Part shown: positions 1,533 to 38,089 of the stretch, in pieces
Layout of the letters: every line of letters starts with the position of its first letter
Numbering within the stretch: position 1 is the stretch's first letter
Assembly: GCA_017463245.1 (NCBI GenBank)
Contig: JAFTPN010000017.1
Span: 88,422 to 152,421, forward strand
From: Clostridia bacterium
GTDB lineage: Bacteria > Bacillota > Clostridia > Christensenellales > Aristaeellaceae
Direction of reading: 5' to 3'
DNA length: 64,000 nucleotides
The notes under the pieces: model-generated
Told to the model about the DNA's origin: nothing
Seen by the model: only the letters and a program-made list of their open reading frames with translations
Database searches by the model: none
Translations under genes and position numbers: made by a program

Positions 1533-1565
1533 AAGGAACCGCTCGTAGAGCGGTTCCTTTTGTTT
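1533..1565. terminator. bidirectional terminator between the lipoprotein gene and the GH13 gene
   Basis: AAGGAACCGCTC-GTA-GAGCGGTTCCTT (12-bp stem), flanked by an A-run and TTTGTTT. Confidence 0.8.
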
Positions 1566-3321
1566 ACCTGCGAATGGTGAAAACCTCTTTGCCCTGCTTG
1601 TCCACCGCATTGCCAAAGGCATCCGTGCCGTCCAGGGAGCGGGTGATGGTCAGGGTGTCGTTGTCGATCGCGGTGACCTCGCAATGGCCGAACTTCAGCA
1701 CATCGCTCTCTTGGTGGTGGGTCAGCTTGGCGGAAATGAAGTCGCGCAGGGCTTCGTCCTGGCGCGCCCAGGGGAAGGGGCGGCGGCAGAAGGGGTCGGG
1801 GCAGCCGGTGAGGCCAACCTCGTCGCCATAGTAGATGGTGGGGCAGCCGGGCAGCGCGCAGAGGATGTCCACGCAGAGCTTGTAGCGGCGCACGGCCAGC
1901 TCGTATTCGGCGGGGGTCAGGCGCAGCGCCTGCTGCTCGGCCTTGGGCAGCTCCTTGCCTTCCTTGCCGCACAGCACGTTCAGCACGCGGGCGCGGTCGT
2001 GGGAGCCGATGAGGTTCATCAGCGCATAGCGGAACTGGGCGGGGTACACCTCGGCCTGGTGGTTGATGAGCCGCGCCAGGTCGTGGGCGGTGCCTTCGCC
2101 AGTCACAAAGGCCAGAATGGCCTCGCGCAGGGGGTAGTTCATCACGGAGTCCAGGGTGTCGCCGGTGCAGTAGCAGCGCATCTGGCCATAGGCCACCTTG
2201 TTGCTGGCGTCCTCCCACACCTCGCCCAGCACCACGGCCTGGGGATCGGCCTTCTTGGCGGCCACGCGCAGCTTGCGCAGGAAGTCCATGGACAGCTCGT
2301 CCGCCACGTCCAGCCGCCAGCCGGAGGAACCGGCATGGATCCAGCGGGGCACGATGCCCTCCTTGTCCTGGAACATAAAGTGCTGGTAGTCCGGGTTATC
2401 CTTGCGGCACTCCGGCAGGGAGGGAATGCCCCACCAGCAGGCGTATTCGTCCCGGGAACCCTTGAAGGTGTACCAGTCGTAGTAGGGGGATTCAGGCCCC
2501 TGATAAGCGCCGATGGTATCGTAGTGGCCGAAATGGTTGAAGTAGCGGCTGTCCTCGCCGGTGTGGGAGAACACGCCGTCCAGGATCACATCCATGCCCT
2601 GGTCTTTTGCGGCCTGGCACAGGGCGCGGAACTCCGCTTCGTTGCCCAGCAGGGGGTCGATCTGGGTGTAATCGCCGGTATCGTAGCGGTGGTTGGAGCG
2701 GGCGCGGAAAATGGGGTTGAGGTAGATCACGTCAACGCCCAGCTCCTTCAGGTAGGGCAGCTTCTCCTGGATGCCGGTGAGGGTACCCGCGAAGAAGTCC
2801 AGCGCCATGTGGTCGCCGCTGCGGGGATCGCTGTCGGTGAGGAGATCCTCGTCCCAGCTTTCGTGGATGTGGCGGTCGGTGCGATCGTCCACCGAGGCGG
2901 TGGGGGCGCGGTGGAAGCGGTCGGGGAAGATCTGATAGATGGTGGCACCGTGCATGAAGTCCGGCGTGGTGAAGGCGGGATCATACATGGTGATCTGGAA
3001 GGACTCGATGCCCTCGTCCCACAGGCGGCCTTCGCCACCCTGCAGGTCGGACTGGTTGCCATAGCGCAGGATGCGGCCATCCTGGTGATAGATGATAAAA
3101 TCATACCAGAAAAGCCCCGGCTCGCCGGGCAGGGTGATGGACACAGACCAGGTCTCCTTGCCATCGAAGGTCATGGGATAGGCCAGTTCCTTGCCCGTCC
3201 AGGTGCGCAGCACAACGCTGGCAGCCTCGTCGCAGCGGAAGCGGATGGTAACGGTGGAGCCAGCCACGGCAGGGCCGGCGGGCTGGCGGAAGAATGCCTT
3301 GTGGGAGTCGTGGAGCAGCAT
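1564..3321 (-). CDS. GH13 alpha-amylase family enzyme (neopullulanase/cyclomaltodextrinase-like)
   Basis: 585-aa ORF with the GH13 conserved regions DVILDGVFSHTG, GWRLDVADEL, GEVWED and NLIGSHD. AAGGAGAA RBS before ATG 3321. Confidence 0.9.
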   Translation of the reverse strand: MLLHDSHKAFFRQPAGPAVAGSTVTIRFRCDEAASVVLRTWTGKELAYPMTFDGKETWSVSITLPGEPGLFWYDFIIYHQDGRILRYGNQSDLQGGEGRLWDEGIESFQITMYDPAFTTPDFMHGATIYQIFPDRFHRAPTASVDDRTDRHIHESWDEDLLTDSDPRSGDHMALDFFAGTLTGIQEKLPYLKELGVDVIYLNPIFRARSNHRYDTGDYTQIDPLLGNEAEFRALCQAAKDQGMDVILDGVFSHTGEDSRYFNHFGHYDTIGAYQGPESPYYDWYTFKGSRDEYACWWGIPSLPECRKDNPDYQHFMFQDKEGIVPRWIHAGSSGWRLDVADELSMDFLRKLRVAAKKADPQAVVLGEVWEDASNKVAYGQMRCYCTGDTLDSVMNYPLREAILAFVTGEGTAHDLARLINHQAEVYPAQFRYALMNLIGSHDRARVLNVLCGKEGKELPKAEQQALRLTPAEYELAVRRYKLCVDILCALPGCPTIYYGDEVGLTGCPDPFCRRPFPWARQDEALRDFISAKLTHHQESDVLKFGHCEVTAIDNDTLTITRSLDGTDAFGNAVDKQGKEVFTIRR

Positions 3322-3341: not shown

Positions 3342-3697
3342 AATTCGGAATTCGGAATGCGGAATGCGGAATTGAGAGTGTGGCACGGCGGGCAGAGCAG
3401 CGCTATGGAGCAAGCGGCAGAACCACTCCCTCAGTCAGCGCAAGCGCTGAAAGCTCCCTTTACACAAGGGAGGCTCAACCCCTCAGTCCCTTCGGGACAG
3501 CTCCCCTACGAAGGGGAGCCTTAGTTACTTCCCCCGCGTCGCGGCGCGCCCATAGCGCGGCGTGACCCCTGCTCGAAGATCGCATAGCAATGCTCTCCCC
3601 GAAAGGGAGTTCAGAGGGTCGAAGACCCTTTGGTAGGGGATTCCCAAGGGGACAACGTCCCCTTGGGCGGGGTCGAGGGGTGGAACCCCTCGCCTCG
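3342..3697 (+). repeat. hairpin-train (F1) mosaic element with 4 heptamers
   Basis: AATTCGG AATTCGG AATGCGG AATGCGG AATTGAG AGTGTGG, then GGCAGAACCACTCC, GTCAGCG-CAAG-CGCTGA, CTCCCTTTACACAAGGGAG, CTCCCCTACGAAGGGGAG, CCGCGTCGCGG, GGGTCGAAGACCC, CCAAGGGGACAACGTCCCCTTGG and CGAGGGGTGGAACCCCTCG. It fills the whole glgP-GH13 spacer. Confidence 0.85.
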
Positions 3698-6151
3698 TTA
3701 CTTATGCATGGGGTCCAGGTGCCAGATGGTGGAGTTGTATTCGCGGATGGTGCGGTCGGAGGAGAAGACGCCGGACATGGCGGTGTTGGTGATGGCCATC
3801 TTGAGCCACTTCTCGCGGTCGGCGTAGTCGGCGTTGAGGCGGCGCTGCGCCATGGAGTAGGAACCGAAGTCCTTCAGGACAAAGTAGGGGTCGGCCATGT
3901 TGCCATAGTCGCCGATGAGCAGGCTGTGGTACAGCTCCTGCAGGACGGTGGCATTGTTGGGGAACAGGGTGCCGTCGATCATCTGGGTCAGAGCCTGGCG
4001 GATCTCCTGGTTGGTCTCGTAGATCTGCATGGGGTTATAGTTACGCTCGCGGTACATATCGCGCACGGTGTCGGAGCGCATACCGAAGATGTAGATATTG
4101 TCCATGCCGACCTGCTGGCTGATCTCCACATTGGCGCCGTCCATGGTGCAGATGGTCACAGCGCCGTACATCATGTACTTCATGTTGCCGGTGCCGCTGG
4201 CCTCCTTGGAGGCGGTGGAGAGCTGCTCGGACACTTCCGCGGCGGGGATGAGGATCTCAGCGGTGGAAACGTCGTAGTTCTCCAGGAAGACCACCTGCAG
4301 GTACTTGCGGGCGCGGGGGTGCTTGGCGATGAGGTTGCTCAGCGCATTGATGAAGCGGATGATCTGCTTGGCGCGGTAGTATCCGGGGGAAGCCTTGGCA
4401 CCAAAGAAGAACACGCGGGGCTCCATGGTGAAGGATTCGTCGGACACGATGCGGTTATACAGCACCAGGATGTGCAGAGCGTTCAGCATCTGACGCTTGT
4501 ACTCATGTAGGCGCTTGGACTGGGCGTCGAACATGAAGGTGGGGTCGACATCGATGCCCTGGCGATCCTTCACCAGCTTGGCCAGGCGCTGCTTGTTGTG
4601 CAGCTTGATCTCGGCAAACTTCTCGCGGAAGGCGGGATCATTGGCAAAGGGCATGAGCTTTTCCAGCTGCTCGGGATCTTTGATCCAGTCGGTGCCGATG
4701 GATTCCTTGATCAGGCTGGTCAGCTCGGGGTTGCAGCTCATCAGCCAGCGGCGATGGGTGATGCCGTTGGTGATGGCGGTGAACTTTTCGGGCATGACCA
4801 GGTTGAAATCGTGGAAGGTCTCGTCCTTGAGGATCTCGCCGTGGAGCATGGACACGCCGTTGACAGAGAAGGACATGGCGATGCACAGGTTGGCGATGTG
4901 GATCTGACCATAGGAGATAACGGCCATCTGGCCAATGCGCTCCCACTGGCCGGGGAACTCGTTCCACAGGCGGGCGCAGAAGCGGCGGTTGATCTCCTCG
5001 ATGATCTGATACAGGCGGGGCAGCAGCTGCTGCATCATGGCCTCAGGCCACTTTTCCAGGGCTTCGGCCATGATGGTGTGGTTGGTGTAGGCAAAGGTCT
5101 TCTGCACGATGGCGGAAGCTTCGTCCCAGCCCAGGCCTTCCTCGTCCATGAGCAGGCGCATCATTTCGGGAATGGCCACGCCGGGGTGGGTATCGTTGAT
5201 GTGGATGCAGACCTTCTCAGGCAGCTTGGAGAAATCGTTGCCGTGCAGCTTCTTGAAATCTTTCAGGATGTACTGCAGGGTGGCGGAGGTGAAGAAATAC
5301 TGCTGCTTGAGGCGGAGCATCTTGCCTTCGTAGTGGTTGTCTTCGGGGTAGAGCACCTTGGAAATGGTCTCGGCCAGCTCGATCTCTTCCACAGCCTGGA
5401 CATACTTGCCCTGGCCGAAGGAGTTCAGGTCGATGCGCTTGGGGCTGCGGGCAGACCACATACGCAGGGTGTTGACGGTGGCGGTGTCGTAGCCGACGAT
5501 GGGCATATCGTAGGGCACGGCCTCCACGGTGTTGTAATCGCGGTGGACGTACTTGGTCACGCCGTCAACTTCCACAGCGTCCACATGACCGTTGAAGTGT
5601 ACCTCGCAGGCGTCCTCCATCACGGCCATTTCCCAGGAGTTGCCGTTGTCCAGCCAGGAGTCGGGCAGCTCCACCTGCTGGCCGTCCACGATCTTCTGGC
5701 GGAAGAGGCCATACTCGTAGCGGATGGTGCAGCCCATGGCGGGCAGGTCCAGGGAGGAGAGGCTGTCCAGGAAGCAGGCAGCCAGACGGCCCAGGCCGCC
5801 GTTGCCCAGGCCGGGTTCGGGCTCTTCCTTCAGGATGGCATCGATGTCGATGCCCAGATCGGCCAGCGCCTCGCGGTAGGCATCGGTGGAGACCAGGTTC
5901 AGCATGTTGCAATACATGCTGCGACCCATAAGGAATTCCACAGAGAGGTAGTACAGGCGCTTGCTCTTGTTGGCCTTGCGCTCCTCGCGGGAGATGAGGT
6001 ACTTCTGCATGATCTGGTCGCGGACGGTGGTGGCCAGCGCCTTGTAGATCTGCTGCTGGGTGGCCTCCTGAATGGTGCGGCCGTTATAACGCTGCAGCTT
6101 GCCAATAATGGAAGCTTTGATGGATTCTTTATCAAATGAAGTCGTAGGCAT
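3698..6151 (-). CDS. glgP: glycogen/maltodextrin phosphorylase
   Basis: The 836-aa track ORF was trimmed to ATG 6151 (MPTTSFDKESIK...), which has a GAGGAGG RBS. The PLP-lysine motif EASGTGNMKYMMYGA is typical of GT35 phosphorylases. Confidence 0.92.
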   Translation of the reverse strand: MPTTSFDKESIKASIIGKLQRYNGRTIQEATQQQIYKALATTVRDQIMQKYLISREERKANKSKRLYYLSVEFLMGRSMYCNMLNLVSTDAYREALADLGIDIDAILKEEPEPGLGNGGLGRLAACFLDSLSSLDLPAMGCTIRYEYGLFRQKIVDGQQVELPDSWLDNGNSWEMAVMEDACEVHFNGHVDAVEVDGVTKYVHRDYNTVEAVPYDMPIVGYDTATVNTLRMWSARSPKRIDLNSFGQGKYVQAVEEIELAETISKVLYPEDNHYEGKMLRLKQQYFFTSATLQYILKDFKKLHGNDFSKLPEKVCIHINDTHPGVAIPEMMRLLMDEEGLGWDEASAIVQKTFAYTNHTIMAEALEKWPEAMMQQLLPRLYQIIEEINRRFCARLWNEFPGQWERIGQMAVISYGQIHIANLCIAMSFSVNGVSMLHGEILKDETFHDFNLVMPEKFTAITNGITHRRWLMSCNPELTSLIKESIGTDWIKDPEQLEKLMPFANDPAFREKFAEIKLHNKQRLAKLVKDRQGIDVDPTFMFDAQSKRLHEYKRQMLNALHILVLYNRIVSDESFTMEPRVFFFGAKASPGYYRAKQIIRFINALSNLIAKHPRARKYLQVVFLENYDVSTAEILIPAAEVSEQLSTASKEASGTGNMKYMMYGAVTICTMDGANVEISQQVGMDNIYIFGMRSDTVRDMYRERNYNPMQIYETNQEIRQALTQMIDGTLFPNNATVLQELYHSLLIGDYGNMADPYFVLKDFGSYSMAQRRLNADYADREKWLKMAITNTAMSGVFSSDRTIREYNSTIWHLDPMHK

Positions 6152-6346: not shown

Positions 6347-6682
6347 AATTCGGAATTCGGAATGCGGAATTGAGAGTGTGGGCGGGCGATTAAGTGGCGT
6401 GTTGAGGCAAGCGGCAGAACCACTCCTTCCGTCAGCCGCAAGCGGCTGCCACCTCCCTCGGGGAGGGAGGCTTTTGGGGTGCGTAGCCAAACAGTCCCCG
6501 CGTCGCGGAGCGCCCGTTGCGCTCCGTGACCCCAGCAAAGGAAAAACCCATCTTCCAATACAGAAGATGGGTTTCGAAAGGGTCGAAGACCCTTCGCGGG
6601 AGTGCAGAGGGCAGCGCCCTCTGCCGGTGGAGTCCAGAGGAGGCAGAGCCTCCTCTGGTGGGGTGCAGGGGCAAAGCCCCGC
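6347..6682 (+). repeat. hairpin-train (F1) mosaic element with 3 heptamers and a terminator module
   Basis: AATTCGG AATTCGG AATGCGG AATTGAG AGTGTGG, then GGCAGAACCACTCC, GTCAGCCG-CAAG-CGGCTG, CTCCCTCGGGGAGGGAG, CCGCGTCGCGG, AACCCATCTTC..GAAGATGGGTT, GGGTCGAAGACCC, CAGAGGGCAGCGCCCTCTG, CCAGAGGAGGCAGAGCCTCCTCTGG and GCAGGGGCAAAGCCCCGC. It ends 1 nt before the proS stop codon. Confidence 0.85.
6537..6573 (-). terminator. rho-independent terminator module inside the F1 element (ends proS transcription)
   Basis: The minus strand reads AACCCATCTTC-TGTATTG-GAAGATGGGTT followed by TTTTCCTTTGC. Confidence 0.7.
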
Positions 6683-8410
6683 TTACAGCTTGCAGTTGAG
6701 GGCGGCGAGGTCGGAGACGACGAGGTCGTAGATGAAGTTGACGGCTTCGTTTGCGGGCTTGTTGTCGCGCAGGGACTTGTCGCGCTTGGAGATCTCGATG
6801 GTGCCGTTCTTGAGACCCTTGGGGCTGACGATGACGCGGACGGGCACGCCGAAGAGGTCGGCATCGGCAAACATGACGCCGGCGGAAACGGGGCGATCGT
6901 CCCAGATGACTTCCACGCCCTTGGCGGTCAGCTCGTCGTAGATCTTCTGGGACATGGCGGCGACTTCGGGATCATCGGCGCGCATGGAGCAGAGATGCAC
7001 GTGCCAGGGGGCAATGGAGATGGGCCAGATGGGGCCGTAGTCGTCGCGGTGGGCTTCGCAAACGGAGGCGGCCAGGCGGCCAACGCCGATGCCATAGCAG
7101 CCCATGATGGGATGCTGCAGGGAGCCGTCCTGAGCGACATAGGTCATGTCCATGCTCTCGGTATACTTGGTGCCCAGCTGGAAGATGTTGCCCACCTCAA
7201 TGCCGCGGGAGGTGTAGATGCTGGGCTTGCCGCACACGGGGCAGATGCCGCCGTCGTAGGCCTTGGCCACATCCACATATTCCACTTCGCCAATGTCGCG
7301 GGGGATGTTCAGGCCGGTGTAGTGCATATCGGGCTCGTTGGCGCCGGTCACCAGGGAGCACAGCCCCTTCAGGGAGGCGTCATACACCACGCGCACTTCG
7401 CTGCTGATGCCTACCGGGCCGATGAAGCCAGCGCACAGGGGGCTGTTCTCGGTGAGCTCGGCGGCGTGGATCTCGGCCTTGAGGTAGTTGCGCAGCTTGG
7501 TCTCGTTGATGTCCAGATCGCCGCGGAGGAAGGCCACCACGATCTTGTCGGTGAGGTTCTCCTGGTAGACCACGGCCTTGCAGGTCTGCTGGGCGGGGAT
7601 GTGCAGGAAATCGCACAGAGCCTCGATGGTCTTGGTCCCGGGGGTGGGAACCTTCTGCAGGGGTGCATCCTCGAAGGTCACTTCCGGCACGATGCAGGGC
7701 GCGGCCTCCATGTTGGCGCGGTAATCGCAATCGTGGCAGAGAACGATGGTGTCCTCGCCCACGGGGGTCAGCAGCATGTATTCGTGGGAGACCTTGCCGC
7801 CCATCATGCCGCTGTCGGAGGCCACAGCCACCACTTCGGGCACGCCAGCGCGGGCGAAGATGCGGTTGTAGGCATCGTAGCAGACCTGGTAGTAGCGCTC
7901 CAGATCCTCCTGGGAGGTGTGGAAGGAATAGGCGTCCTTCATGGTGAACTCGCGCACGCGGATCAGGCCGCCGCGGCAGCGGGGCTCATCGCGGAACTTG
8001 GTCTGGATCTGGTAGATCATGAAGGGATACTGGGTGTAGCTGTCGGCAATGTCGCGCACGAAATGCACGGAGGCCTCTTCATGAGTCATGCCCAGCACCA
8101 TGTCCTGCTCGGAGCGATCCTTGAAGCGCAGCAGCTCGGAGCCGATGGCGTCGTAGCGGCCGGACTCGCGCCAGATGGAGGCGGGCATCGCCACGGGGAA
8201 GAGCAGCTCCTGGCCGTCGATGCGGTTCATCTCCTCGCGGATGATCTTCTCGATCTTGGAGGTGATGCGCTTGGTGACGGGGAACAGGGTGAAGATGCCG
8301 TTGCCCACGGGCTTGATGTAGCCGCCGCGCATCATCAGCGCCTGGGAGGCGATCTGGCAATCGGCGGGGGTTTCCTTGTAGCGCTTGGAGACCAGATTCT
8401 TGAGCTTCAT
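6683..8410 (-). CDS. proS: proline--tRNA ligase
   Basis: The track ORF 6683..8776 reads through the leader and repeat, so I trimmed it to ATG 8410 (MKLKNLVSKRYKETPADCQIASQALMMRGGYI...), which has an AAAGGAGAG RBS. Class II ProRS-like sequence throughout, preceded by a T-box leader. Confidence 0.92.
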   Translation of the reverse strand: MKLKNLVSKRYKETPADCQIASQALMMRGGYIKPVGNGIFTLFPVTKRITSKIEKIIREEMNRIDGQELLFPVAMPASIWRESGRYDAIGSELLRFKDRSEQDMVLGMTHEEASVHFVRDIADSYTQYPFMIYQIQTKFRDEPRCRGGLIRVREFTMKDAYSFHTSQEDLERYYQVCYDAYNRIFARAGVPEVVAVASDSGMMGGKVSHEYMLLTPVGEDTIVLCHDCDYRANMEAAPCIVPEVTFEDAPLQKVPTPGTKTIEALCDFLHIPAQQTCKAVVYQENLTDKIVVAFLRGDLDINETKLRNYLKAEIHAAELTENSPLCAGFIGPVGISSEVRVVYDASLKGLCSLVTGANEPDMHYTGLNIPRDIGEVEYVDVAKAYDGGICPVCGKPSIYTSRGIEVGNIFQLGTKYTESMDMTYVAQDGSLQHPIMGCYGIGVGRLAASVCEAHRDDYGPIWPISIAPWHVHLCSMRADDPEVAAMSQKIYDELTAKGVEVIWDDRPVSAGVMFADADLFGVPVRVIVSPKGLKNGTIEISKRDKSLRDNKPANEAVNFIYDLVVSDLAALNCKL

Positions 8411-8733: not shown

Positions 8734-8929
8734 TTTCCACCTCATCAGTCGCCTGACGGCGACAGCTTCCCCTCAAGGGGAAGCCTTAGCGCATGGCCAT
8801 GCAAGAGCCTTCCCCTTGAGGGCGCGACGCGTTAAGAAAATATGCCAGTGGCATATTTTTAGCCAAAGCGGGGAGCAATCTGCGATTGCGACCTGGACAA
8901 GGTGGCCGAAGGCCGGATGAGGTGGAAAG
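8734..8929 (+). mobile_element. MITE-like element F2, long form
   Basis: TTTCCACCTCATC (8734-8746) ... GATGAGGTGGAAA (8917-8929). Internal hairpins: GTCGCCTGACGGCGAC, CTTCCCCTCAAGGGGAAG, AAATATGCCAGTGGCATATTT, GCAATCTGCGATTGC and GGCCGAAGGCC. It lies between the proS promoter and the argS 3' end. Confidence 0.85.
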
Positions 8930-8958
8930 TCACATGATTTGCCCAGCAACAAAGAGCC

Positions 8959-11388: not shown

Positions 11389-11563
11389 AAAAAAGTGGCC
11401 TGAAAGGCCACTTTTTTGAGTTTGCGCTCCGTCACTGTGGGCTAAAGCCCACGGCCGTTCCTCCGCGTAAGGAATGTTTCCGGCAAAGCCGGAAACGCCC
11501 CGCCCTGCCGGGAAACCCGGCGGATACGATTACAGTCAGAGGCGCTGCGGCGCCTCCGACACC
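11389..11563 (+). repeat. F3 multi-hairpin repeat, copy 1
   Basis: Shares the ordered blocks AGTGGC..GCCACT, GAG(G)GTTGCGCTCCGTC, CTGTGGGCTAAAGCCCACGG, GTTT(T/C)C(A/C)G..CTGAAAAC/CCGGAAAC, CCGCC(G)GG-AAA-CC(C/G)GGCGG, ATACGATTACAGTC and GGAGG..CCTCC with the copies at 22854 and 44524. Confidence 0.8.
11394..11418 (+). terminator. rho-independent terminator (first hairpin of repeat family F3)
   Basis: AGTGGCC-TGAAA-GGCCACT followed by TTTTTT, 15 nt after the stop codon at 11377-11379. Confidence 0.75.
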
Positions 11564-11572
11564 TCCAGGGTT

Positions 11573-12930: not shown

Positions 12931-13944
12931 TCACACCCGCCAACCCCGCAGCGCACCCCGCAGGGAGACCACCACCGGCAGCGCCGCCACCATGCCCAGC
13001 GCCCCGCCCAGGAGGCCGCCAGCGGAAATGGCCAGCAGCACCGCCAGGGGATGCAGCCGCGTGGCGCCGGAGAGGAACCGGGGCGAGAGCAGCCCGCTTT
13101 CGATCTGCTGCACAAGCAGCAGTACCCCCAGCGTCCACAGGGCAGCCACCCAGCCGCCCTGCAAGGCCAGCAGCACCGCGGGGATGCCCGCGATCACCGG
13201 CCCCACATAGGGGATCAGCTCCATGATGCCCATCAGCAGCCCCAGCACCAGCCAGCCCGGCGTGCCCACCAGCAGCAGCCCTGCGGCGGTCAGCATACCC
13301 ACCGCCAGGGAAAGCAGCAGCTGTCCCCGCAGGAAATTGGCGGTCTCCCGGCGCATTTCCCGGGCGGCGCGGGTGGCGCGGGCACGGTAGCGCACGGGGA
13401 TCAGCAGCATCAGCCCGGAGGCGATGCGCCGCCTGTCACGCAGGAGGTAGAAGGCAAACAGCGGCGCCAGGAAGAGCTTGCTCAGGCTTTGCAGCGCCTG
13501 GGTCACCGCCTGGGCGACGCCGGATACCACCGCCCCCGCCCGCTGGCTCAGCTGGGCAAAAAGCTCGTCCCGCACGGGAGTCAGGTCAAGGCCGCGGGCT
13601 TGCAGAAAGGTCTGCACCCGGCCAAGCAGTTCCTCGCCCCATTGCAGCAGGGCGGGGAAGTCCGCCGCCAGCTGCCGGAACTGCTGCACCAGCGGCGGGA
13701 TCACCACCAAGAGCGCCAGGAGCGCCAGCAAGGCCAGCGCCCCGAAGGAAAGCCCTGCCGCCGCGCTGGGGGAGAGCCGCTTTTCCAGCAGGCGGCACAG
13801 GGGCAGCGCCAGCACCATGAGCAGGTACCCCGCCAGCAGCTGCACCCCCAGCGCCCACAGCACCCGTCGCAAAAGAAACGCCCCCACCATCGCCCCGGCG
13901 ATGATCCACGGCAGGCGCTTACGGTGGGCGATGCTGTGCTGCAT
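12931..13944 (-). CDS. AI-2E family (PerM/UPF0118) transporter
   Basis: 337-aa polytopic membrane protein. The sequence ...RRETANFLRGQLLLSLAVGMLTAAGLLLVGTPGWLVLGLLMGIMELIPYVGPVIAGIPAVLLAL... is typical of the family. Confidence 0.75.
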   Translation of the reverse strand: MQHSIAHRKRLPWIIAGAMVGAFLLRRVLWALGVQLLAGYLLMVLALPLCRLLEKRLSPSAAAGLSFGALALLALLALLVVIPPLVQQFRQLAADFPALLQWGEELLGRVQTFLQARGLDLTPVRDELFAQLSQRAGAVVSGVAQAVTQALQSLSKLFLAPLFAFYLLRDRRRIASGLMLLIPVRYRARATRAAREMRRETANFLRGQLLLSLAVGMLTAAGLLLVGTPGWLVLGLLMGIMELIPYVGPVIAGIPAVLLALQGGWVAALWTLGVLLLVQQIESGLLSPRFLSGATRLHPLAVLLAISAGGLLGGALGMVAALPVVVSLRGALRGWRV

Positions 13945-14008: not shown

Positions 14009-14205
14009 TTTCCACCTCATCCGACCTTCGGCCACCTTGTCCAGGTCGCAATCGCAGATTGCTCCCCGCTTTGGCTAAAAATATGCCACTGGCATATTTT
14101 CTTAACGCGTCGCGCCCTCAAGGGGAAGGCATATGCCCGCATGTGGACAAAGGCTTCCCCTTGAGGGGAAGCTGTCAGCGCTTGCGCTGACTGATGAGGT
14201 GGAAA
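14009..14205 (-). mobile_element. MITE-like element F2, long form (inverted relative to the copy at 8734)
   Basis: Terminal inverted repeats TTTCCACCTCATC (14009-14021) and GATGAGGTGGAAA (14193-14205). The interior is colinear with the reverse complement of 8734-8929, including the AAATATGCCAcTGGCATATTT and GCAATC-gca-GATTGC hairpins. Confidence 0.8.
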
Positions 14206-14977: not shown

Positions 14978-15061
14978 GGCGGCATTCCTCCTTCGCAGAA
15001 AAAGATTGCCCGGACGGGCGCGGATTCATGATGAAAACTTGTGGAAAAAGAAAATGAAAAA

Positions 15062-15162
15062 GGCTCCCCTTCGTAGGGGAGCTGTCTGAGCGTAGCGAAG
15101 ACTGAGGGGTTAACCCCTCCGGCTCGCCTTGCGGCGACCCACCTCCCCGATGAAGGGGAGGC
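15062..15162 (-). repeat. partial hairpin-train (F1) element
   Basis: GGCTCCCCTTCGTAGGGGAGC, GAGGGGTTAACCCCTC and CCTCCCCGATGAAGGGGAGG correspond to the reverse complement of modules in the 3342-3697 copy (GGCTCAACCCCTC..., CTCCCCTACGAAGGGGAGCC). Confidence 0.6.
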
Positions 15163-15171
15163 ATTATTGCT

Positions 15172-15330
15172 TTATTCTTCCTCGAACATATCCTTGCCCA
15201 CGCCGCACAGGGGGCAGACCCAATCCTCGGGAACATTTTCCCATTCGGTGCCGGGCGCCACGCCGTTGTCGGGATCGCCGGATTCCACTTCGTACACATA
15301 GCCGCAAACCGTGCAAACATAATGCTTCAT
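15172..15330 (-). CDS. rubredoxin (52 aa; below ORF-track cutoff)
   Basis: Hand translation gives [52 protein letters not shown]. It has the two canonical CxxCG / CPxCG iron-binding knuckles. AAAGGAGATCAAGGCT precedes the ATG. Confidence 0.9.
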
Positions 15331-15417
15331 AGCCTTGATCTCCTTTCGTTGGGGGAGGTTTGCCTCCTGAAAAGAGTATCAACGTTTTTGCGGCGGGTGA
15401 AACAGGTTTTTTGAAAA

Positions 15418-17631
15418 TTATTTTGCAGCAAGCAGCGGCGTGACTTCGCCCGTGGCCAGCACCCGCAGCCGGTGCAGGGGGCGGGTGAGCATCACATACA
15501 GCATCCTGCACAGGAAGGGATCATCCGCAAATTCCGTACTGCTGGCGTTGCACACGGCCACGCAGTCGAATTCCAGCCCCTTCACCATGGCCGCGGGCAG
15601 GATCAGCACACCGCCCTGGTAGTCCGTGTCGTCCTCCTTCATCAGGCGCACGGGCAGGTCGTTTTTCAGCAATTTGTAGAGGTGCTCCGCCCCGGCGCGG
15701 GTCTTTTCGATCAGCGCAATGGTGTGGTAGCCTTCCTCCAGCCAGGCCTTGACCTGCTGGCGCAAGGCGGCATAGCGCTCCTTGTCGGTGGTGTAGACGG
15801 TGACGGTGGGTTCCTCCCCATAGCGCAGCACAGGGCGGGCGGTCTGCTGCCCCGGCACGGGATGACGGGCGGCCACCCGGCTGGCCAGGGTCATAATTTC
15901 GACGGTGTTGCGGTAGCTGGTCACCAGCTGCAGCAGCGTGGCTTCGCCGCCGAATACCGGCTCCATCCATTGTCGGTAGTCGCTGATGCCCTCTTCCTCG
16001 TGGATGCCCTGCATCAGATCGCCCACCAGGGTGAAGGTGGCGGCGGGGTACTGCTCGTGGAGCAGCGCCAGCTGGTAGGGGGAGAAGTCCTGGCACTCGT
16101 CCATCACGATGTGGCGCAGGGGCTTCTTCGGCAATCCATACACCGCCTGGCAGATGCTGCACAGCGCCGCCAGATCCTCCTGCTGCACCCGCTTCTTGTC
16201 CAGCAGGGGCAGGGTGGCCTCCTGCACGGCCTGGGATTCGTGCCGCATCAGGTAGGTGCGGTACACCGTCAAAAGCGACAGGTCGGGGAACAGGCTGGGG
16301 AACTCCTTCAGGTATTGCTTGGCGCGCTGGTCGATCTCCGCCATGCGGTCGTCCCGGCTCTGAAGAAGCTTCCGGGCGCGGGCGCGGCGCTCCTCGCCAT
16401 CGGGCAGGGAGGAAAGCAGCAGCGTCAGGCGATCCTGCGCCATCTTGTCCATGGCGGCTTTCATGGCCTCGGCCACCTGCAAAAGCCGCTTCTTGATGTA
16501 CTTTTTCAGTTCGTCGATGCGCTGCGCCAGGGGGAAGGGGCGCAGCTGCTTGAGGAAGATGTCCTGCACCTCCTCCGGCGTATACAGGGTATGCCCGCCG
16601 AAGCGCAGGCCATTGGAAGGCAGGATCTCTGCCTGGTAGCCATCGAGGAAAGCCTCGATGCTGCGCTTCATGTCCAGGGAGGCCTTGCGGCGCAGCACCT
16701 CGCCCATGGCGGCGCGGGAAGCCTCGGTGCCGGTGAGCTTTTCTTCCAGGCGGCTGACCAGCTGCATCCTGGGGGCGTGCTTGCCCATCCAGCTCTGGCA
16801 CAGCCCGGCGAAGGTGGTCTGGATCACCCGCTCCACGCCCAGGTCGGGCAGGACCTGGGAGATGTAGCTGAGGAACAGCGGGTTGGGGGCGAGGATCATC
16901 ATCTGCTCCGGGCGCAGGGTGTCGCGGAAGGCATAGAGCAGCCAGGCGATGCGGTGCAGGGCGATGGTGGTCTTGCCGCTGCCGGCCACACCCTGCACAA
17001 TGAGGTTCTGCCGCAGGGGATGGCGGATCACCAGGTTCTGCTCGGCCTGAATGGTGGTGACGATCTCCTTCAGCCTGTCGGAGCTGACGGAACCCAGCAC
17101 ACCCTGCAAATAGGCGTCCTGGCTCACCACGCCGCTGTCGAACAGGGAAATGAGCCGCTCGCCTTCCACGGTGAGCATACGCTTCAGGGTCAGTTCGCCC
17201 CGCACCTTGCCGTCGGGGGCCTCGTAGTCCATGGGACCCACCTGGCCGGAGTAGTACAGGTTGGCCACGGGGGAGCGCCAGTCGGCCACCACCACATCCA
17301 GGGTGGAGGTGTCGTGTACGCCCCAGCGACCCAGGTAGTGGGTCTCAGGCGCGCCGCCCTCCGGGGTGAAGTCCAGGTGGGCGAAGTACGCCTGCCTGCG
17401 GGAGCGTGCCAGGTTGTGCAGGGTGTCCACCTTCATGCGAAGGATGTCCATCATCACCTGCTCGTCCATGGTGGCGTCGGCAGGAACCACAATGATGCGC
17501 TCCTCCTCCGCGCCCACGCCGGTGTCCTTTTCCAGTTTGTCGATCTCTCGCTGTACGGTTTGGCACACCTGTGCCAGATGCTGCGCCTCTGCCAGGCTCT
17601 CCGGATGATCGGGTAAAACGTAGGGTTCCAT
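15418..17631 (-). CDS. helD: UvrD-like SF1 helicase of the HelD / helicase IV type
   Basis: 737 aa. Walker A motif in VQGVAGSGKTTIALHRIAWLLY, a long N-terminal non-helicase region, and C-terminal UvrD_C-like ...LKGLEFDCVAV.... GAAGGAGGAAC RBS. Confidence 0.75.
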   Translation of the reverse strand: MEPYVLPDHPESLAEAQHLAQVCQTVQREIDKLEKDTGVGAEEERIIVVPADATMDEQVMMDILRMKVDTLHNLARSRRQAYFAHLDFTPEGGAPETHYLGRWGVHDTSTLDVVVADWRSPVANLYYSGQVGPMDYEAPDGKVRGELTLKRMLTVEGERLISLFDSGVVSQDAYLQGVLGSVSSDRLKEIVTTIQAEQNLVIRHPLRQNLIVQGVAGSGKTTIALHRIAWLLYAFRDTLRPEQMMILAPNPLFLSYISQVLPDLGVERVIQTTFAGLCQSWMGKHAPRMQLVSRLEEKLTGTEASRAAMGEVLRRKASLDMKRSIEAFLDGYQAEILPSNGLRFGGHTLYTPEEVQDIFLKQLRPFPLAQRIDELKKYIKKRLLQVAEAMKAAMDKMAQDRLTLLLSSLPDGEERRARARKLLQSRDDRMAEIDQRAKQYLKEFPSLFPDLSLLTVYRTYLMRHESQAVQEATLPLLDKKRVQQEDLAALCSICQAVYGLPKKPLRHIVMDECQDFSPYQLALLHEQYPAATFTLVGDLMQGIHEEEGISDYRQWMEPVFGGEATLLQLVTSYRNTVEIMTLASRVAARHPVPGQQTARPVLRYGEEPTVTVYTTDKERYAALRQQVKAWLEEGYHTIALIEKTRAGAEHLYKLLKNDLPVRLMKEDDTDYQGGVLILPAAMVKGLEFDCVAVCNASSTEFADDPFLCRMLYVMLTRPLHRLRVLATGEVTPLLAAK

Positions 17632-17730
17632 GTTCCTCCTTCTTCCGGCAGGGTATACAAAAAGCCCCTGCCCTTCATCTAATGAATTCGCAGAGGCTTA
17701 CATCAAGCTGCAAGCGTGTGTTGTGGAGGT

Positions 17731-17759
17731 ATTGTAACAGAAAAGAGAGTTATTGTCAA
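17731..17759 (-). promoter_or_regulatory. strong candidate promoter of helD
   Basis: Minus strand: TTGACA (17759-17754), 17-nt spacer, TACAAT (17736-17731). The leader is about 95 nt and contains a GGCAGGG...CCCTGCC hairpin. Confidence 0.6.
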
Positions 17760-17760
17760 G

Positions 17761-18036
17761 GACGCAGAGGGCTCTGCCCTCTGCACTCCCGCTTAAGGGT
17801 CTTCGACCCTTAAGAATCCCATTCGGGGTGGGCGTTTCGGACGCACATAAGCAGGGGTCACGCCGCGGGGTCTTCGACCCGTTTCATGGGCGCGCCGCGA
17901 CGCGGATAAAGCAGCCAAAAGCCTCCCTCCCCGAGGGAGGTGGCAGCCGCTTGCGGCTGACGGAAGGAGTGGTTCTGCCACTTGCTCCAATGCCATACTT
18001 CCTTGGCACCTGTAGGGGCGATCTGCGATCGCCCGC
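17761..18036 (-). repeat. hairpin-train (F1) mosaic element, inverted copy, ending in a single REP hairpin
   Basis: On the plus strand it contains GCAGAGGGCTCTGCCCTCTGC, GGGTCTTCGACCC (twice), CGCGACGCG, CCTCCCTCCCCGAGGGAGG, CAGCCGCTTGCGGCTGAC, GGAGTGGTTCTGCC and GTAGGGGCGATCTGCGATCGCCCG (18012-18036). This is the reverse order and orientation of the copies at 3342, 6347, 18900 and 48413. No heptamer array. Confidence 0.8.
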
Positions 18037-18103
18037 GGCGCTGCACAAAATGCCAAGCAGGCAGATGATGCAATGTGCGCAGCCAGGGGGCTGCTGCGGA
18101 GAT

Positions 18104-18832
18104 TTACTTCTTCATCGCGAACCCGTAGATACCGATAGCCGCTGCGATAGACAGATTCAGCGAATCGATCTTCTCGTTGCTGGGGATGCGCACGGGCTGG
18201 CCTTTGTGGGCAAACTCGGCGGGGAGACCGCTGCCCTCGTTGCCGAAGACCAGCGTCCAGCGGGCGGGGATGGGCTCGGCCAGCACATCGGGCAGGGAGC
18301 GGGAGCCGTCCAGCATAAAGGGATACAGCGCCCGGTCGGGATGCTCGGCCTGGTAGTCCTCGAAGGTGTCGTAGACCTTTACCCGCAGGGAGAACAGGCT
18401 GCCCATGCTGGCACGCACCACCCGGGGATCGAACACATCCACACAGGGGCGAATGAGGGCGATATCCTCCACGCCAAAGCCCAGGGCGGTGCGCAGAATG
18501 GTGCCCACGTTGCCCTGATCGGACGGGTTGTGCAGCACCACATGGGGGACATCTGCGGCCAGGGCATCGCTGAACTTGCTGAACACGGCGGCGGCAAAGC
18601 AGTTCTCCTTGCCGGAAATGCGGCTCAGCGCCTTATCGGCGATCTCCACGCGGACGTGGAGCTGTTCCGCCAGCGCGGTGAGCATCTGGGCGGCCTCGGT
18701 TCCTTCAGCCTTGGAGTGCAAAAGCACCCGGCGAGCGCAATCGGGGCGGTGGAGCAGGCACTCCATGGCGGGGAAAGCGCCGGGGGCGTAGCCGTAGTCC
18801 AGGTCGGATTTGTAAGGGGCGAGTGAAGGCAT
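18104..18832 (-). CDS. SpoU/TrmH-family RNA 2'-O-methyltransferase
   Basis: Track ORF trimmed to ATG 18832 (MPSLAPYKSDLDYGY...). SpoU motifs are present: ...LHNPSDQGNVGTILRTALGFGV..., ...LVFGNEGSGLP... and ...IPSNEKIDSLNLSIAAAIGIY.... Confidence 0.85.
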   Translation of the reverse strand: MPSLAPYKSDLDYGYAPGAFPAMECLLHRPDCARRVLLHSKAEGTEAAQMLTALAEQLHVRVEIADKALSRISGKENCFAAAVFSKFSDALAADVPHVVLHNPSDQGNVGTILRTALGFGVEDIALIRPCVDVFDPRVVRASMGSLFSLRVKVYDTFEDYQAEHPDRALYPFMLDGSRSLPDVLAEPIPARWTLVFGNEGSGLPAEFAHKGQPVRIPSNEKIDSLNLSIAAAIGIYGFAMKK

Positions 18833-18899
18833 GGTGGTTCCCTCCTGTTCGGGGAGATTATAGCATATTTTTGGGCGGGTGGAAAGAGCGGGGGGAGAG

Positions 18900-19177
18900 A
18901 ATTCGGAATTCGGAATGCGGAATGCGGAATTGAGAGTGTGGCACCCAATCCCTCCGTCAGCCGCAGGCGGCTGACACCTCCCTTTACACAAGGGAGGCTT
19001 TTGGGGTGCATAGCCTAACAATCCCCGCGTCGCGGCGCAACCGTATTTGCGCCGTGACCCCTGCAAAGGAAAAACCCATCTTCCAATACAGAAGATGGGT
19101 TTCGAAAGGGACGAAGTCCCTTCGCGGGTTGTCAGGGCAGCGCCCTGACCGGGAGTCCAGAGGGCAGCGCCCTCTGG
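18900..19177 (+). repeat. hairpin-train (F1) mosaic element with 4 heptamers and a terminator module
   Basis: AATTCGG AATTCGG AATGCGG AATGCGG AATTGAG AGTGTGG is followed by GTCAGCCG-CAGG-CGGCTGAC, CTCCCTTTACACAAGGGAG, CCGCGTCGCGG, AACCCATCTTC..GAAGATGGGTT, GGGACGAAGTCCC and CCAGAGGGCAGCGCCCTCTGG. The last hairpin ends 2 nt before the stop of the upstream ABC gene. Confidence 0.85.
19066..19102 (-). terminator. rho-independent terminator module inside the F1 element (ends the ABC exporter operon)
   Basis: The minus strand reads AACCCATCTTC-TGTATTG-GAAGATGGGTT followed by TTTTCCTTT. Confidence 0.7.
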
Positions 19178-19179
19178 CG

Positions 19180-20982
19180 TCACTCCACAAGACCCTGGTC
19201 TTTGGCTTGGGCGGTGTAGAGTTCGTAGTAGGCGCCGTGTTTGGCGAGGAGCTCGTCGTGGCTGCCGGATTCAAGGATGCCCTTGTTGGAGATGTAGAGG
19301 ATGCGGTCGCAGTTCTTGATGGTGGAGAGACGGTGGGCGATGATGAAGGAGGTACGGTTCTTCAAAAGCGCCTGGATGCCCTCCTGCAGGAGCTTCTCCG
19401 TTTTGGTGTCGATGGAGGAGGTGGCCTCGTCCAGGATCAGGATGCGGGGATCGCTGAGCAGGGTGCGGGCAAAGGATACCAGCTGCTTTTGCCCCTGGGA
19501 GAGGCGGTTGCCGCGCTCGTTCACGGTGGTCATGTAGCCCTGGGGCATTTCGCTGATGAAATCATCGGCGCGAACCATTTTGGCGGCGGTGCGGATCTCC
19601 TCCTCGGTGGCGTTCAGGCGGCCATAGCGGATGTTATCCATAATGGTGCCGGAGAAGATGAAGCTGTCCTGCAGCATAATGCCCAGCTGGTTGCGCAGGC
19701 TGTTCAGCGTGACCTCGGAGATATCGTAGGTCTTGCCGTTTTCATCCGTGAGGGTGATGGAGCCGCTGTTCAGGTTATAGAAGCGGCAGAGCAGGTTGAC
19801 CACGGTACTCTTGCCAGCGCCGGTGGGACCCACCAGGGCGATGCTCTCGCCAGCCTTCACATGCAGGTCGAAATGCTCCAGCACGTGGATGCCCTCTTCA
19901 TAGCCGAAGGTCACATCGTTGAAGTGGACTTCGCCGGTGATGTCGGGCAGGCGAGCAGCGTTCTCCTTGTCGTCCACCACCACGGGCTCGTCCATGGTCT
20001 CGAAGATGCGCTCCAGGTAGGCCAGGTTGTTGACGAAGGAGTTGTAGATGTTGGCCAGGTTGGTGATGGGCTGCCAGAAGCGGCCGACATACTGACCCAT
20101 GGCCAGGATCACGCCGAAGGACACAATGGCGCCGCCCATCCAGTAAACACCGGCGGTGTACATCACCGTGAAGACCACCTGGGTGATCATTTCAGAGGTG
20201 AACCACACGCTGTTGGAAATGTACACAGCCTTCATCCAGGCGGCGCGGCAGGCAATGGCCAGGCGCTCCATGATGGAGCGGTTCACATCCTGGCGGGCAA
20301 AGAGCTGGCTGACGCGAACGCCGTCGATGGACTCGGCCAGGTAGGCATTGTAGTTGGAGTTCTTGTTGCTCTGGTTCTGCCAGGCCTTGCGCTGGCGGGG
20401 TTTCAGATACCAGATGAAGGCTGCAAACACCGGCAGGCCGGCAATGACGATGGTGGCCAGGGTGACATTGGTGGAATACATGAACACCACGATGAAGATC
20501 AGGTTGATGATCTCCAGAATGGAGTTGATGATGCCGTTGGACAGGATGTCCGAAACGGAGTTGACGTAGTTGATGACGCGCACCAGGATCTTTCCGGCGG
20601 GGCGGCTGTCATAATAGGAGAAGGGCAGGCGCTGCAGGTGGGCAAAGAGATCCTTGCGGATATCGTAGATGATCTCCTGGCTCACGTGCGCCATGATGCG
20701 GGAGCGGATGACCGTGAACACGATGCTCAGGCCAATGATGCCCAGGAAGAGGATGGCCATTTTGCCCAGCATGGCCATGTCCTTGTTGGGCACGGCTTCG
20801 TCCATGACCCATTGGGTGATCTTGGGCACGAACAGACCGGCCACGGAGGCGCAGGCGGAAAGCAGCAGCGCCAGGAGCATTTTCACCTTGTGCTTGCTGA
20901 TGTACTTGAAGGCGCGCTTGAGGTGACCCAGGTCAAACGGGGACTCCAGACTCTCGTCAACGTCGAACTTATTGCGAGCCAT
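19180..20982 (-). CDS. ABC exporter, fused permease/ATPase (heterodimer partner B)
   Basis: 600 aa: six-TM N-terminal half, Walker A GPTGAGKST, signature LSQGQKQ, Walker B ILILDEATS. Confidence 0.9.
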   Translation of the reverse strand: MARNKFDVDESLESPFDLGHLKRAFKYISKHKVKMLLALLLSACASVAGLFVPKITQWVMDEAVPNKDMAMLGKMAILFLGIIGLSIVFTVIRSRIMAHVSQEIIYDIRKDLFAHLQRLPFSYYDSRPAGKILVRVINYVNSVSDILSNGIINSILEIINLIFIVVFMYSTNVTLATIVIAGLPVFAAFIWYLKPRQRKAWQNQSNKNSNYNAYLAESIDGVRVSQLFARQDVNRSIMERLAIACRAAWMKAVYISNSVWFTSEMITQVVFTVMYTAGVYWMGGAIVSFGVILAMGQYVGRFWQPITNLANIYNSFVNNLAYLERIFETMDEPVVVDDKENAARLPDITGEVHFNDVTFGYEEGIHVLEHFDLHVKAGESIALVGPTGAGKSTVVNLLCRFYNLNSGSITLTDENGKTYDISEVTLNSLRNQLGIMLQDSFIFSGTIMDNIRYGRLNATEEEIRTAAKMVRADDFISEMPQGYMTTVNERGNRLSQGQKQLVSFARTLLSDPRILILDEATSSIDTKTEKLLQEGIQALLKNRTSFIIAHRLSTIKNCDRILYISNKGILESGSHDELLAKHGAYYELYTAQAKDQGLVE

Positions 20983-22853: not shown

Positions 22854-23023
22854 CCAAGTGGCAGAGCCACTTGGACGAGGGTTGCGCTCCGTCGCTGTGG
22901 GCTAAAGCCCACGGCCGCTCCTTCGCGTAAGGAAAGTTTTCAGCAGAGCTGAAAACGACCCGCCCCGCCGGGAAACCCGGCGGATACGATTGCAGTCGGA
23001 GGGTTTGCGAACCCTCCGACACC
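22854..23023 (+). repeat. F3 multi-hairpin repeat, copy 2
   Basis: CCAAGTGGCAGAGCCACTTGG ACGAGGGTTGCGCTCCGTCGCTGTGGGCTAAAGCCCACGG...GTTTTCAGCAGAGCTGAAAAC...CCGCCGGGAAACCCGGCGGATACGATTGCAGTCGGAGGGTTTGCGAACCCTCCGACACC is colinear with copies 1 and 3. Confidence 0.8.
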
Positions 23024-23078
23024 ACCCGGGGATTTGCGTTCCTACTGGAGGTTGGGAATATTGCATCTATATGCAAAT

Positions 23079-23169
23079 GTAGGGGCGAACTGTGTTCGCC
23101 CGCCACGCTGCATCCTCTGCCTTCTGGGCAAATGGTGCCACGCCGCGGGCGATCACAGATCGCCCCTAC
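23079..23169. repeat. REP doublet (REPIN-like inverted pair)
   Basis: GTAGGGGCGAACTGTGTTCGCCCGC (23079-23103) and its inverted partner GCGGGCGATCACAGATCGCCCCTAC (23145-23169), separated by about 40 nt. Confidence 0.8.
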
Positions 23170-23178
23170 ACGGTTGCG

Positions 23179-26992: not shown

Positions 26993-27021
26993 GCTGCACA
27001 ACAGTCCTGCTTCTTTTTCCC

Positions 27022-35874: not shown

Positions 35875-35924
35875 CACCGGCCTTTCGCAGCAGTATATGC
35901 GCGGAAAGGCGGGAATGTGCCAGC

Positions 35925-38082: not shown

Positions 38083-38089
38083 AGGTTTT

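Follow-up and report, generated by a model that had tools for sequence, protein, structure and literature searches.

Mosaic hairpin repeats with a heptamer head at gene junctions of Aristaeellaceae (Clostridia), probably of the REP/BIME/BOX kind

In a 64-kb stretch of clostridial DNA (assembly GCA_017463245.1, contig JAFTPN010000017.1, positions 88,422 to 152,421; called the window in the following), whole gene junctions are filled by related, hairpin-rich sequences. This raises the question of what kind of element they are, how they came to lie there and what they might do. According to the names of its Pth and TrmH homologues (Aristaeellaceae or Clostridia bacterium metagenome-assembled genomes, MAGs), the window stems from the Aristaeellaceae (Christensenellales). 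These bacteria, the former Christensenellaceae R-7 group, are abundant in rumen and hindgut and known mostly from MAGs. An earlier reading made from the sequence alone (the sequence-only reading) had described a family of 300-350 nt elements with selected structure. Our analysis indicates that the family, referred to as family A, probably consists of non-coding, non-autonomous mosaic repeats of the kind represented by repetitive extragenic palindromes (REP), bacterial interspersed mosaic elements (BIME) and BOX elements, and that it is specific to Aristaeellaceae.

The window contains five full copies, E1 to E4 in one orientation and E5 inverted, besides partial copies and an array of heptamers standing alone (Table 1). 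In a blastn search of the window against itself the full copies are pairwise 64-83% identical (E values 1e-14 to 1e-58), and an nhmmer profile built from their alignment (alignment A1) scored 243-312 bits on each of them. All seven places where related sequence had been claimed were recovered by these searches. The partial copies among them are real, but the list was incomplete, and the additions are marked in Table 1. The motif GGAATKCGGAAT occurs 14 times where 0.01 occurrences are expected, and CGCGTCGCGG-N14-44-CGTGACCCC, a pattern for the 12-bp stem described below with a gap that allows for its variable loop length, five times where none is expected. When folded as RNA, the elements reach z-scores of -5.4 to -6.7 standard deviations relative to shuffled sequences. 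A count of perfect hairpins with stems of 7 bp or more and loops of 3-9 nt gave 63 in the approximately 9 kb of intergenic DNA of the window as compared to 33 in the approximately 55 kb of coding DNA. Open reading frames (ORFs), tRNAs or Rfam families were not found inside the elements. As anticipated in the sequence-only reading, the Rfam covariance models gave no match to a named non-coding RNA family at gathering score across the window, and a permissive search of positions 17700-19200, containing E3 and E5, returned only noise with E > 4.

Across the family, element length ranges from 250 to 380 bp. The ordered chain of modules read from the sequence reappears in alignment A1, where the five full copies have one order in common, given here on the + strand for E1-E4. 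It begins with three to five heptamers AATTCGG or AATGCGG and AATTGAG-AGTGTGG, the latter two themselves degenerate heptamers. Then comes, as an optional module, one REP unit GGGCGATC-nnn-GATCGCCCCTAC, on the other strand a GTAG-tagged palindrome, present in E4, E5 and five copies elsewhere. It is followed by (A)GYGGCAGAACCACT, the hairpin GTCAGC(C)G-CAAG-CG(G)CTGAC, the hairpin SCTCCCT-loop-AGGGAGS, a 12-bp stem GTCGCGGCGCGA/TCGCGCCGTGAC whose fourth pair is an invariant G.T, a variable slot, the sequence GAAAGGGTC-GAA-GACCCTTC and finally, in tandem, one to four hairpins of the type NNNNGGG(n)-loop-(n)CCCNNNN. CCGC-GTC-GCGG, previously taken as a module of its own, is in fact the base of the 12-bp stem. 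Sixteen copies contain 93 perfect hairpins, two to eight per copy, with 46 distinct stems.

Each copy is made up of three blocks. The head is an array of three to five GGAAT-core heptamers that closes with GAATTGAGAGTGTGG; a single REP hairpin with GTAG tag often comes next. The middle comprises two hairpins and is common to a second family resembling MITEs (miniature transposable elements with inverted repeats). The right half is formed by the 12-bp stem, the variable slot and the one to four tandem GGG...CCC hairpins. Every block is also found on its own: the head at the comparison locus L005 and at the lone array of the window, the middle at 35913-35985 of the window and as half of the second family, which is bounded by CTTTCCACCTCATC...GATGAGGTGGAAAG, and the right half at L036 (14520-14652) and L037 (16000-16170). 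The elements are modular, dispersed and junction-filling as had been described, but they are composites of at least three separately occurring blocks, and their status as units of 300-350 nt was not borne out.

Orthologous junctions were compared at three sites. Between pth and mfd, E4 fills the 340 nt from TGA to CCGGAGG in the window, and L017 (GCA_965325125.1) has a collinear, diverged copy of about 300 nt without the REP unit. The junction is empty in L015 and L016, which read AAG-TAA-CCGGAGGTTTTTATG with an intergenic gap of 12 nt, and neither L018 (43 nt) nor L020 (11 nt) has modules of the family there. Judged by protein identities, the window, L015 and L017 are about equidistant, with L018 and L020 outside. 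Thus, there was either a precise loss in L015, or two entries at the same spot. Filled and empty sites share at most 1-2 nt, and the insertion is seamless. At the SpoU-helicase junction, L028 is empty (122 nt), the SpoU stop codon TGA overlapping the helicase -35 box TTGACA; in the window (472 nt) E5 sits just before the same TTGACA. The glgP-amylase junction measures 66 nt in L037, with a native terminator-like hairpin only, 218 nt in L036, with only the right half (tail, variable slot and 12-bp stem), 376 nt in the window, with a full element, and 579 nt in L035, where the same right half is accompanied by unrelated DNA, a REP unit and a single GTCAGC hairpin. Copies have therefore been inserted and lost at gene junctions, whole or in blocks. 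Since junctions are empty, half-filled or differently filled and the blocks are found alone, the mosaic is assembled and dismantled block by block.

Insertion polymorphism at orthologous sites, found here at three junctions, is also a hallmark of MITEs. The elements might be single-unit transposons of the MITE type or palindrome-associated transposable elements (PATE), deletion derivatives of an IS200/IS605-like element, perhaps with a guide-RNA scaffold, that insert in one piece next to a tetranucleotide containing a stop codon. Such an origin would suit the seamless presence or absence at pth-mfd without target duplication, the hairpin-rich ends and the T(T/C)AC or TTGAC found beside the tail in 13 of 20 copies. 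We regard it as distinctly improbable, however, because the blocks occur separately and the same junction is half, full or differently composed in relatives. Moreover, compared with the background the target motif lacks significance, T(T/C)AC being inseparable from stop-codon usage; neither TnpA nor TnpB is found among the approximately 50 ORFs of the window; known transposon-associated RNAs are not matched in Rfam; and sequence and module content differ too much between copies for a single conserved RNA scaffold.

About 15 further copies were found in other Aristaeellaceae genomes. MAG RGIG9056, from water-deer rectum, contains the 21-mer AATGCGGAATTGAGAGTGTGG seven times, and RGIG5986 and RGIG8955 contain it once each; in these loci a profile search recovered 11 copies whose modules are ordered as in the window. 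In some copies GAATKCG is replaced by GAATAAT, GAATGAT or GAATTAT in the heptamers. The genes around the RGIG copies are unrelated to those of the window, and a search for window orthologues of the element-flanking genes of RGIG9056 found only paralogous ABC transporters. A scan of JGI metagenomes with the 21-mer gave no match; a second one with a 22-mer from a hairpin module gave four relevant short contigs and two coincidences in coding sequences. Scans of viral contigs gave four chance 16-mer matches without heptamers and no match to the hairpin pattern.

These copies bear on the question whether a segment was duplicated locally or the assembly is faulty; only the clustering of five copies within 64 kb speaks for this. 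As the copies occur in several species amid unrelated genes, the family is dispersed and not a local duplication, and the search for further copies proposed in the sequence-only reading has thus been decided against the latter. In the window, too, they lie at junctions of unrelated housekeeping genes, and E1 is recovered with 0 differences in three other, independent metagenome assemblies of the same species (which at a divergence of 0.2% is uninformative on variation). Duplication or artefact is refuted by these observations, and we put its probability at practically nil.

Conservation of the hairpins was assessed in 14 aligned cores. In the three core helices 95.5% of the cells are paired, a level reached by none of 500 shuffles; double-sided changes affect eight of the 28 pairs, one-sided changes none. 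The score for covariation amounts to 0.214, against 0.080 in the shuffles (again, 0 of 500 reach it), and slid controls are only 35-53% paired. In 30 distinct, loop-aligned tail hairpins double-sided changes occur at nine of ten stem positions, of which the inner six pairs were the selection criterion and the outer four alone are independent (60-97% paired, 18-29 of 30 cells). Hairpin complementarity is clearly maintained while the sequence drifts. The statement that stems are kept while loops differ holds, and stem sequences vary as well. The change from a 7-bp to an 8-bp stem, put forward earlier as compensated, does gain an extra C:G pair, but the neighbouring pair is broken (GCTGCC) in six of the 14 copies.

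The two strands of the elements fold equally well, with a mean difference of 0.7 +/- 7.1 kcal/mol and each strand favoured in eight of 16 copies. G-U intermediates were not found in the core stems, where the sole wobble, the invariant G.T, belongs to the antisense strand of the flanking genes. Strong covariation of the stems combined with a lack of strand bias in folding energy means that covariation does not tell selection at the RNA level apart from upkeep of DNA palindromes, as in single-stranded DNA or cruciforms. Of the earlier argument for selection on structure, read as RNA, the covariation stands, exceeding 500 shuffles, but given the missing strand bias and G-U intermediates and the empty junctions of relatives, the palindromes may just as well be kept up as DNA, in the manner of REP-like elements.

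The position of the copies relative to genes is regular. The window copies are flanked throughout by common housekeeping genes, all located on the - strand. Of the first 16 copies, 13 have their first tail hairpin 0-10 nt behind the end of a co-oriented ORF with 80 codons or more. L035 and the two copies of L036 follow this rule as well, and in part of the copies the stop codon falls within the stem itself. For E1-E4 the distance between last hairpin and upstream stop codon, estimated at 1-5 nt from the sequence, was measured as 0-5 nt. There are two clear exceptions, E5 and the L037 copy, whose neighbour is not a stop codon but a -35 box TTGAC(A/C). At the other end, a ribosome-binding site with start codon follows the heptamers within 1-18 nt in nine of 15 copies. 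Strong promoter-like sites lie directly beyond E3 (10/12) and E5 (11/12), the putative SpoU promoter at 18885-18857 (- strand) just past the E3 heptamers.

The content of the variable slot differs with this context. In T-type copies (E2, E3, L008, L014 and L013b) the slot holds a terminator-like hairpin, reading (G)AAACCCATC...GATGGGTTTT and then TCCTTTG on the gene-sense strand (arms also given as AAACCCATC..GATGGGTTTTT), which is missing in R-type copies (E1, E4 and seven others with a following ribosome-binding site). A terminator-like hairpin with T-run is present in five of the six copies without a following ribosome-binding site and in none of the nine with one within 1-18 nt (Fisher p = 0.002), the 15 copies being phylogenetically non-independent and the criterion having been tuned after the data were seen, a reservation to be added to those gathered below. 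Copies at predicted operon ends thus carry the putative terminator and operon-internal ones do not, so that module content appears to fit the transcriptional context.

Could the elements be functional RNAs? As cis-acting RNA, they would be selected hairpin arrays in 3' untranslated regions (3' UTRs) or between cistrons, useful cassettes recruited to stabilise the upstream mRNA, to set termination or read-through and to tune translation of the next cistron. The covarying stems, the tail 0-10 nt after stop codons, the match of terminator and read-through variants to operon context and the heptamer end 1-18 nt before a ribosome-binding site in nine copies all agree with such a role. We nonetheless consider it rather unlikely, as folding energy is without strand bias, G-U intermediates are absent with the only wobble on the antisense strand, the direction of E5 and of the L037 copy is opposite to transcription, and the corresponding junctions of close relatives are without the element. 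It is most improbable that the copies are independent small-RNA genes, each driven from a promoter of its own. The predicted structure is highly stable, but a scan for promoter-like sites found none within the copies, the nearby ones belonging to flanking genes, and mosaic content, indels of whole modules, occurrence in both orientations and the lack of an Rfam match argue against it.

REP units connect the family to a known kind of repeat. Eight GTAG-tagged units of the form GTAGGGGCGAWC-loop-GWTCGCCC, with 8-bp stems and 3-nt loops, are found in the window, GTAGGGGCGAWC having 8 matches where 0.6 are expected. E4 and E5 contain one such unit each. At 716-806, 23073-23170 and 36058-36156 two GTAGGGGCGAWC-nnn-GWTCGCCC palindromes form a REPIN-like inverted doublet whose GTAG ends point outward; these doublets span about 90 nt and are all intergenic. 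Copies of family A carry either no REP unit or one (present in two of the five window copies and seven of 16 overall), and only this optional module, not the other hairpins, corresponds to the REP palindrome of the GTAG superfamily.

Barriers at mRNA 3' ends, insulation and REP-type mobility are ascribed to BIMEs and REPs in enterobacteria, and a comparable course of events can be proposed for the mosaic repeats described here. The upstream gene would be transcribed together with the element as its 3' UTR or intercistronic spacer, and the hairpins would act as barriers to 3'-exonucleases and as insulators between cistrons. The variable slot would terminate transcription in T-type copies at the ends of transcription units or permit read-through in R-type copies inside operons. 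Read-through of E4 would be required, since mfd lacks any other promoter-like signal and 12 nt separate it from pth where the site is empty. The heptamer stretch, poor in G and unstructured, would keep the next ribosome-binding site clear of hairpins. Copies may spread in trans, the most plausible agent being a tyrosine (Y1) transposase, REP-associated or IS200-like, that acts on hairpins in single-stranded form; replication slippage or recombination between similar hairpins may shuffle the blocks or itself move copies. The copies would be basically selfish or neutral, the survivors being those positions and variants that leave expression of the flanking genes intact.

Several points weigh against this interpretation. 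A Pfam scan of the approximately 50 ORFs of the window revealed no Y1_Tnp, RAYT, TnpA, TnpB, integrase or other transposase. Terminal inverted repeats and a clear target duplication were looked for and not found, the ends being formed by heptamer array and hairpin tail. Recent transposition is not evident, copies within the genome being only 64-83% identical. A preferred target GTRA, corresponding to T(T/C)AC beside the tail, is unsupported: the base before the stop codon is G in 11 of 18 copies and in 42% of 146 background genes, and the stop codon TAG is rare in the background anyway (5%). The head is 100% conserved over 21-45 nt across copies and species, which is unexplained by neutral selfish DNA. 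Finally, transcription, termination and mRNA stabilisation by the elements are what we infer from their sequence.

The heptamers of the head have parallels elsewhere. The window contains five arrays of 3.6-4.7 units each, made of GGAATTC and GGAATGC; they have GG tracts only, below the GGG minimum of a G-quadruplex. As tandem 7-nt units near ORF ends, in one case overlapping a stop codon, they qualify as heptameric intergenic repeats. Repeats of this class with GGAAT-like core have been described before, GGGAATC in Xanthomonas and GGGGAYT in Nostoc, with unknown function, mostly about four units and a distance of 0-50 bp from ORF ends (PMC4692102). Their G-rich strand is the non-coding one if they lie upstream of an ORF, and stop codons are overlapped if they lie downstream (PMC4692102). 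The STRR heptamers of cyanobacteria are similar (PMC2670836). The arrays of family A have the same geometry as these three, but unlike them are physically joined to a hairpin train, and the G-quadruplex explanation offered for Xanthomonas is not obviously applicable to GG-only tracts. A literature search by sequence strings and taxon returned only primers and unrelated papers and no description of the family. The claim of an undescribed family hence agrees with the missing Rfam and literature matches, but does not extend to the heptamer part, which belongs to the described GGAAT-core class (PMC4692102).

The sole match of the 21-mer outside Clostridia is at L010 (JBCDAJ010000118.1, a Cyanobacteria MAG), 6847-7085, where 12.6 GAATGCG units and the exact AATGCGGAATTGAGAGTGTGG with GAATTGAGAGTGTGG lie inside a degenerate array. 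The contig is truly cyanobacterial, with 12 HIP1 sites (GCGATCGC) where 0.16 are expected; hairpin modules of family A were not found on it. GGAAT-core arrays ending in GAATTGAGAGTGTGG could be the working end of an unknown DNA-processing system common to several phyla, and the elements a new non-autonomous class rather than passive leftovers of REP type. An enzyme might bind or prime on the 7-nt-phased GAAT, seed, extend or mobilise hairpin trains and place them at stop codons. This is a speculative and quite unlikely reading, which we keep open mainly because the identical 21-mer together with a heptamer array on the cyanobacterial contig is unexplained.

At L026 (JGI contig Ga0326511_10095739, 2034-2330) similar hairpin modules stand beside arrays of (ATTCCTC)n, (CTATTSC)n and (GGGGAAT)n. 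Because hairpin modules adjoin other heptamer arrays there, the neighbourhood of the two appears to be a general habit in related organisms.

Among known systems, family A is best read as a new example of the REP/BIME/BOX kind and not as a new kind of system; the analogy to BIMEs and BOX elements drawn at the outset proved apt. BOX of Streptococcus pneumoniae, boxA-boxB(n)-boxC, is a modular intergenic repeat with strong predicted secondary structure. It resembles family A in its Gram-positive host, ordered modules and variable internal number, whereas family A is longer (250-380 nt) and has many more hairpins and a heptamer array; the module sets, judged without a BOX reference sequence, seem unrelated. 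With the BIMEs of E. coli and its relatives, family A has in common GC-rich palindromes and conserved non-palindromic motifs combined as a mosaic in fixed order, an extragenic position at gene 3' ends and within operons, a variable number of modules, GTAG-tagged REP units (definitions in PMC3733652) and, presumably, co-transcription. In contrast to BIMEs in the strict sense, in which REP units of alternating orientation are separated by extra-REP motifs, it has at most one REP unit per copy, most of its hairpins lack the GTAG tag, and it adds a heptamer array at one end, an optional terminator module and a Firmicute host. REPINs and RAYT-mobilised REP doublets contain the same GTAG-tagged units, which in family A form only one optional module. 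A survey of REPs makes no mention of Firmicutes or Clostridia (PMC3733652).

REP-like elements have been little studied in Firmicutes. Noteworthy traits of the present family are the heptamer head, the tail hugging the stop codon and the terminator or read-through variants that seem to fit their context; it physically links hairpin repeats to GGAAT-core heptamer arrays, a class known from Xanthomonas and cyanobacteria. By a rough sum of coordinates, family A and three sister repeat families make up about a third of the intergenic DNA of the window. Such repeats break assemblies, yield spurious ORFs and can mislead screens for non-coding RNA. The natural series of empty, half-filled and full junctions and of terminator and read-through variants should be useful for studying effects of REP-like arrays on mRNA 3' ends and operon polarity.

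Table 1. Full copies, partial copies and relatives of family A in the window. T-type and R-type, with and without terminator-like hairpin; "added", missing from the earlier list.
Feature	Position	Strand	Description
E1	3342-3697	+	R-type, without terminator; between glycogen phosphorylase glgP (3698-6151, -) and alpha-amylase (1564-3321, -)
E1 head	3342-3373		Heptamers, then GAGAGTGTGG up to 3383
E1 next modules	~3414-3427; ~3434-3450; 3454-3472		GCGGCAGAACCACT; GTCAGCG/CGCTGA; CTCCCTT hairpin
E1 further modules	3500-3519; ~3538-3566; 3643-3667, 3674-3692		Extra hairpin; 12-bp stem; tail hairpins
E2	6347-6682	+	T-type; proS to glgP junction; adjoins ProRS stop codon 6683-6685
E2 hairpins	6544-6574		Terminator-like, - strand reading AAACCCATCTTC..GAAGATGGGTTTTTCC; also three tail hairpins
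E3	18899-19179	+	T-type; ABC exporter to SpoU/TrmH methylase; adjoins ABC transporter stop codon 19180-19182
E3 hairpins	19072-19102		Terminator-like; GGCAGAACCACT module absent
E4	48413-48741	+	R-type; exactly between pth stop codon (48742-48744) and mfd ribosome-binding site CCGGAGG
E4 head	48413-48444; 48462-48484		Heptamers; GTAG-tagged REP unit
E4 hairpins	48536-48553, 48555-48573; 48607-48636; 48684-48700, 48712-48736		Two hairpins; 12-bp stem; two further hairpins
E5	17761-18100 (17761-18036 as first delimited)	-	Inverted, without heptamers; between SpoU stop codon (18104) and UvrD-like helicase promoter
E5 details	17759; 18012-18034; to ~18100		Helicase -35 TTGACA; REP unit; REPIN-type spacer
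Heptamer array alone (added)	62102-62137	+	4.4 AATTCGG units; from HlyD-like gene stop codon to GGAGG ribosome-binding site of next gene
Partial copy	15060-15172		Two GCTCCCC/CCTCCCC-type hairpins, the last ending 2 nt before stop codon of - strand ORF 15164-15511
Partial copy	35913-36030	+	GTCAGCCG hairpin and GCTCCCCT hairpin, joined to half of CCTTCCCC/GATGAGGTGGAAAG element
Family C, related (added)	38874-39020	+	CCAC..CTCA-GTCAGCG-CAAG-CGCTGAC block common to middle of family A; bounded by inverted repeat CCACCTCATC..GATGAGGTGG
Further fragments, blastn self-search	14149-14202 (added), 38874-38951, 36047-36200 (added), 62099-62150		

Other repeats were observed in the same window. The MITE-like family that has the middle block in common with family A comprises copies of about 115-130 nt at 26878-26995, 38895-39020, 8740-8930, 14140-14205 and 35984-36030. 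Its inverted repeat CTTTCCACCTCATC...GATGAGGTGGAAAG encloses GCTTCCCC-TTGA-GGGGAAGC hairpins; the left half is homologous to the middle block, and the copy at 8740-8930 is split by other DNA. An identical AT-rich hairpin AAAATATGCC-nnn-GGCATATTTT is present at 8837-8859 and 14078-14100, in both cases adjoining CCTTCCCC/GCTTCCCC modules.

Another family, of about 150 nt, is found at 11420-11570, 22880-23035 and 44545-44680, each copy after a terminator-like hairpin. It is composed of GGGTTGCGCTCCGTCRCTGTG-hairpin-CACGGCCG..GTAAGGAA-GTTTYCRGC/GCYGRAAAC-..CCGGCGGATACGATTRCAGTC, shows compensated stems (GTTTTCAGC/GCTGAAAAC vs GTTTCCGGC/GCCGGAAAC) and has no Rfam match. ARAGORN reported a tRNA-Lys(CTT) of 97 nt at 13056-13152 (- strand) inside an ORF for an AI-2E transporter (12931-13944, Pfam E 3.6e-55), probably a false positive. 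Two stretches have a lower G+C content, 38001-40000 (0.49) and 50001-52000 (0.52) as compared to about 0.60; they contain ORFs without Pfam match (39180-39578) and a GNAT acetyltransferase gene (50471-51232), and are possibly acquired DNA.

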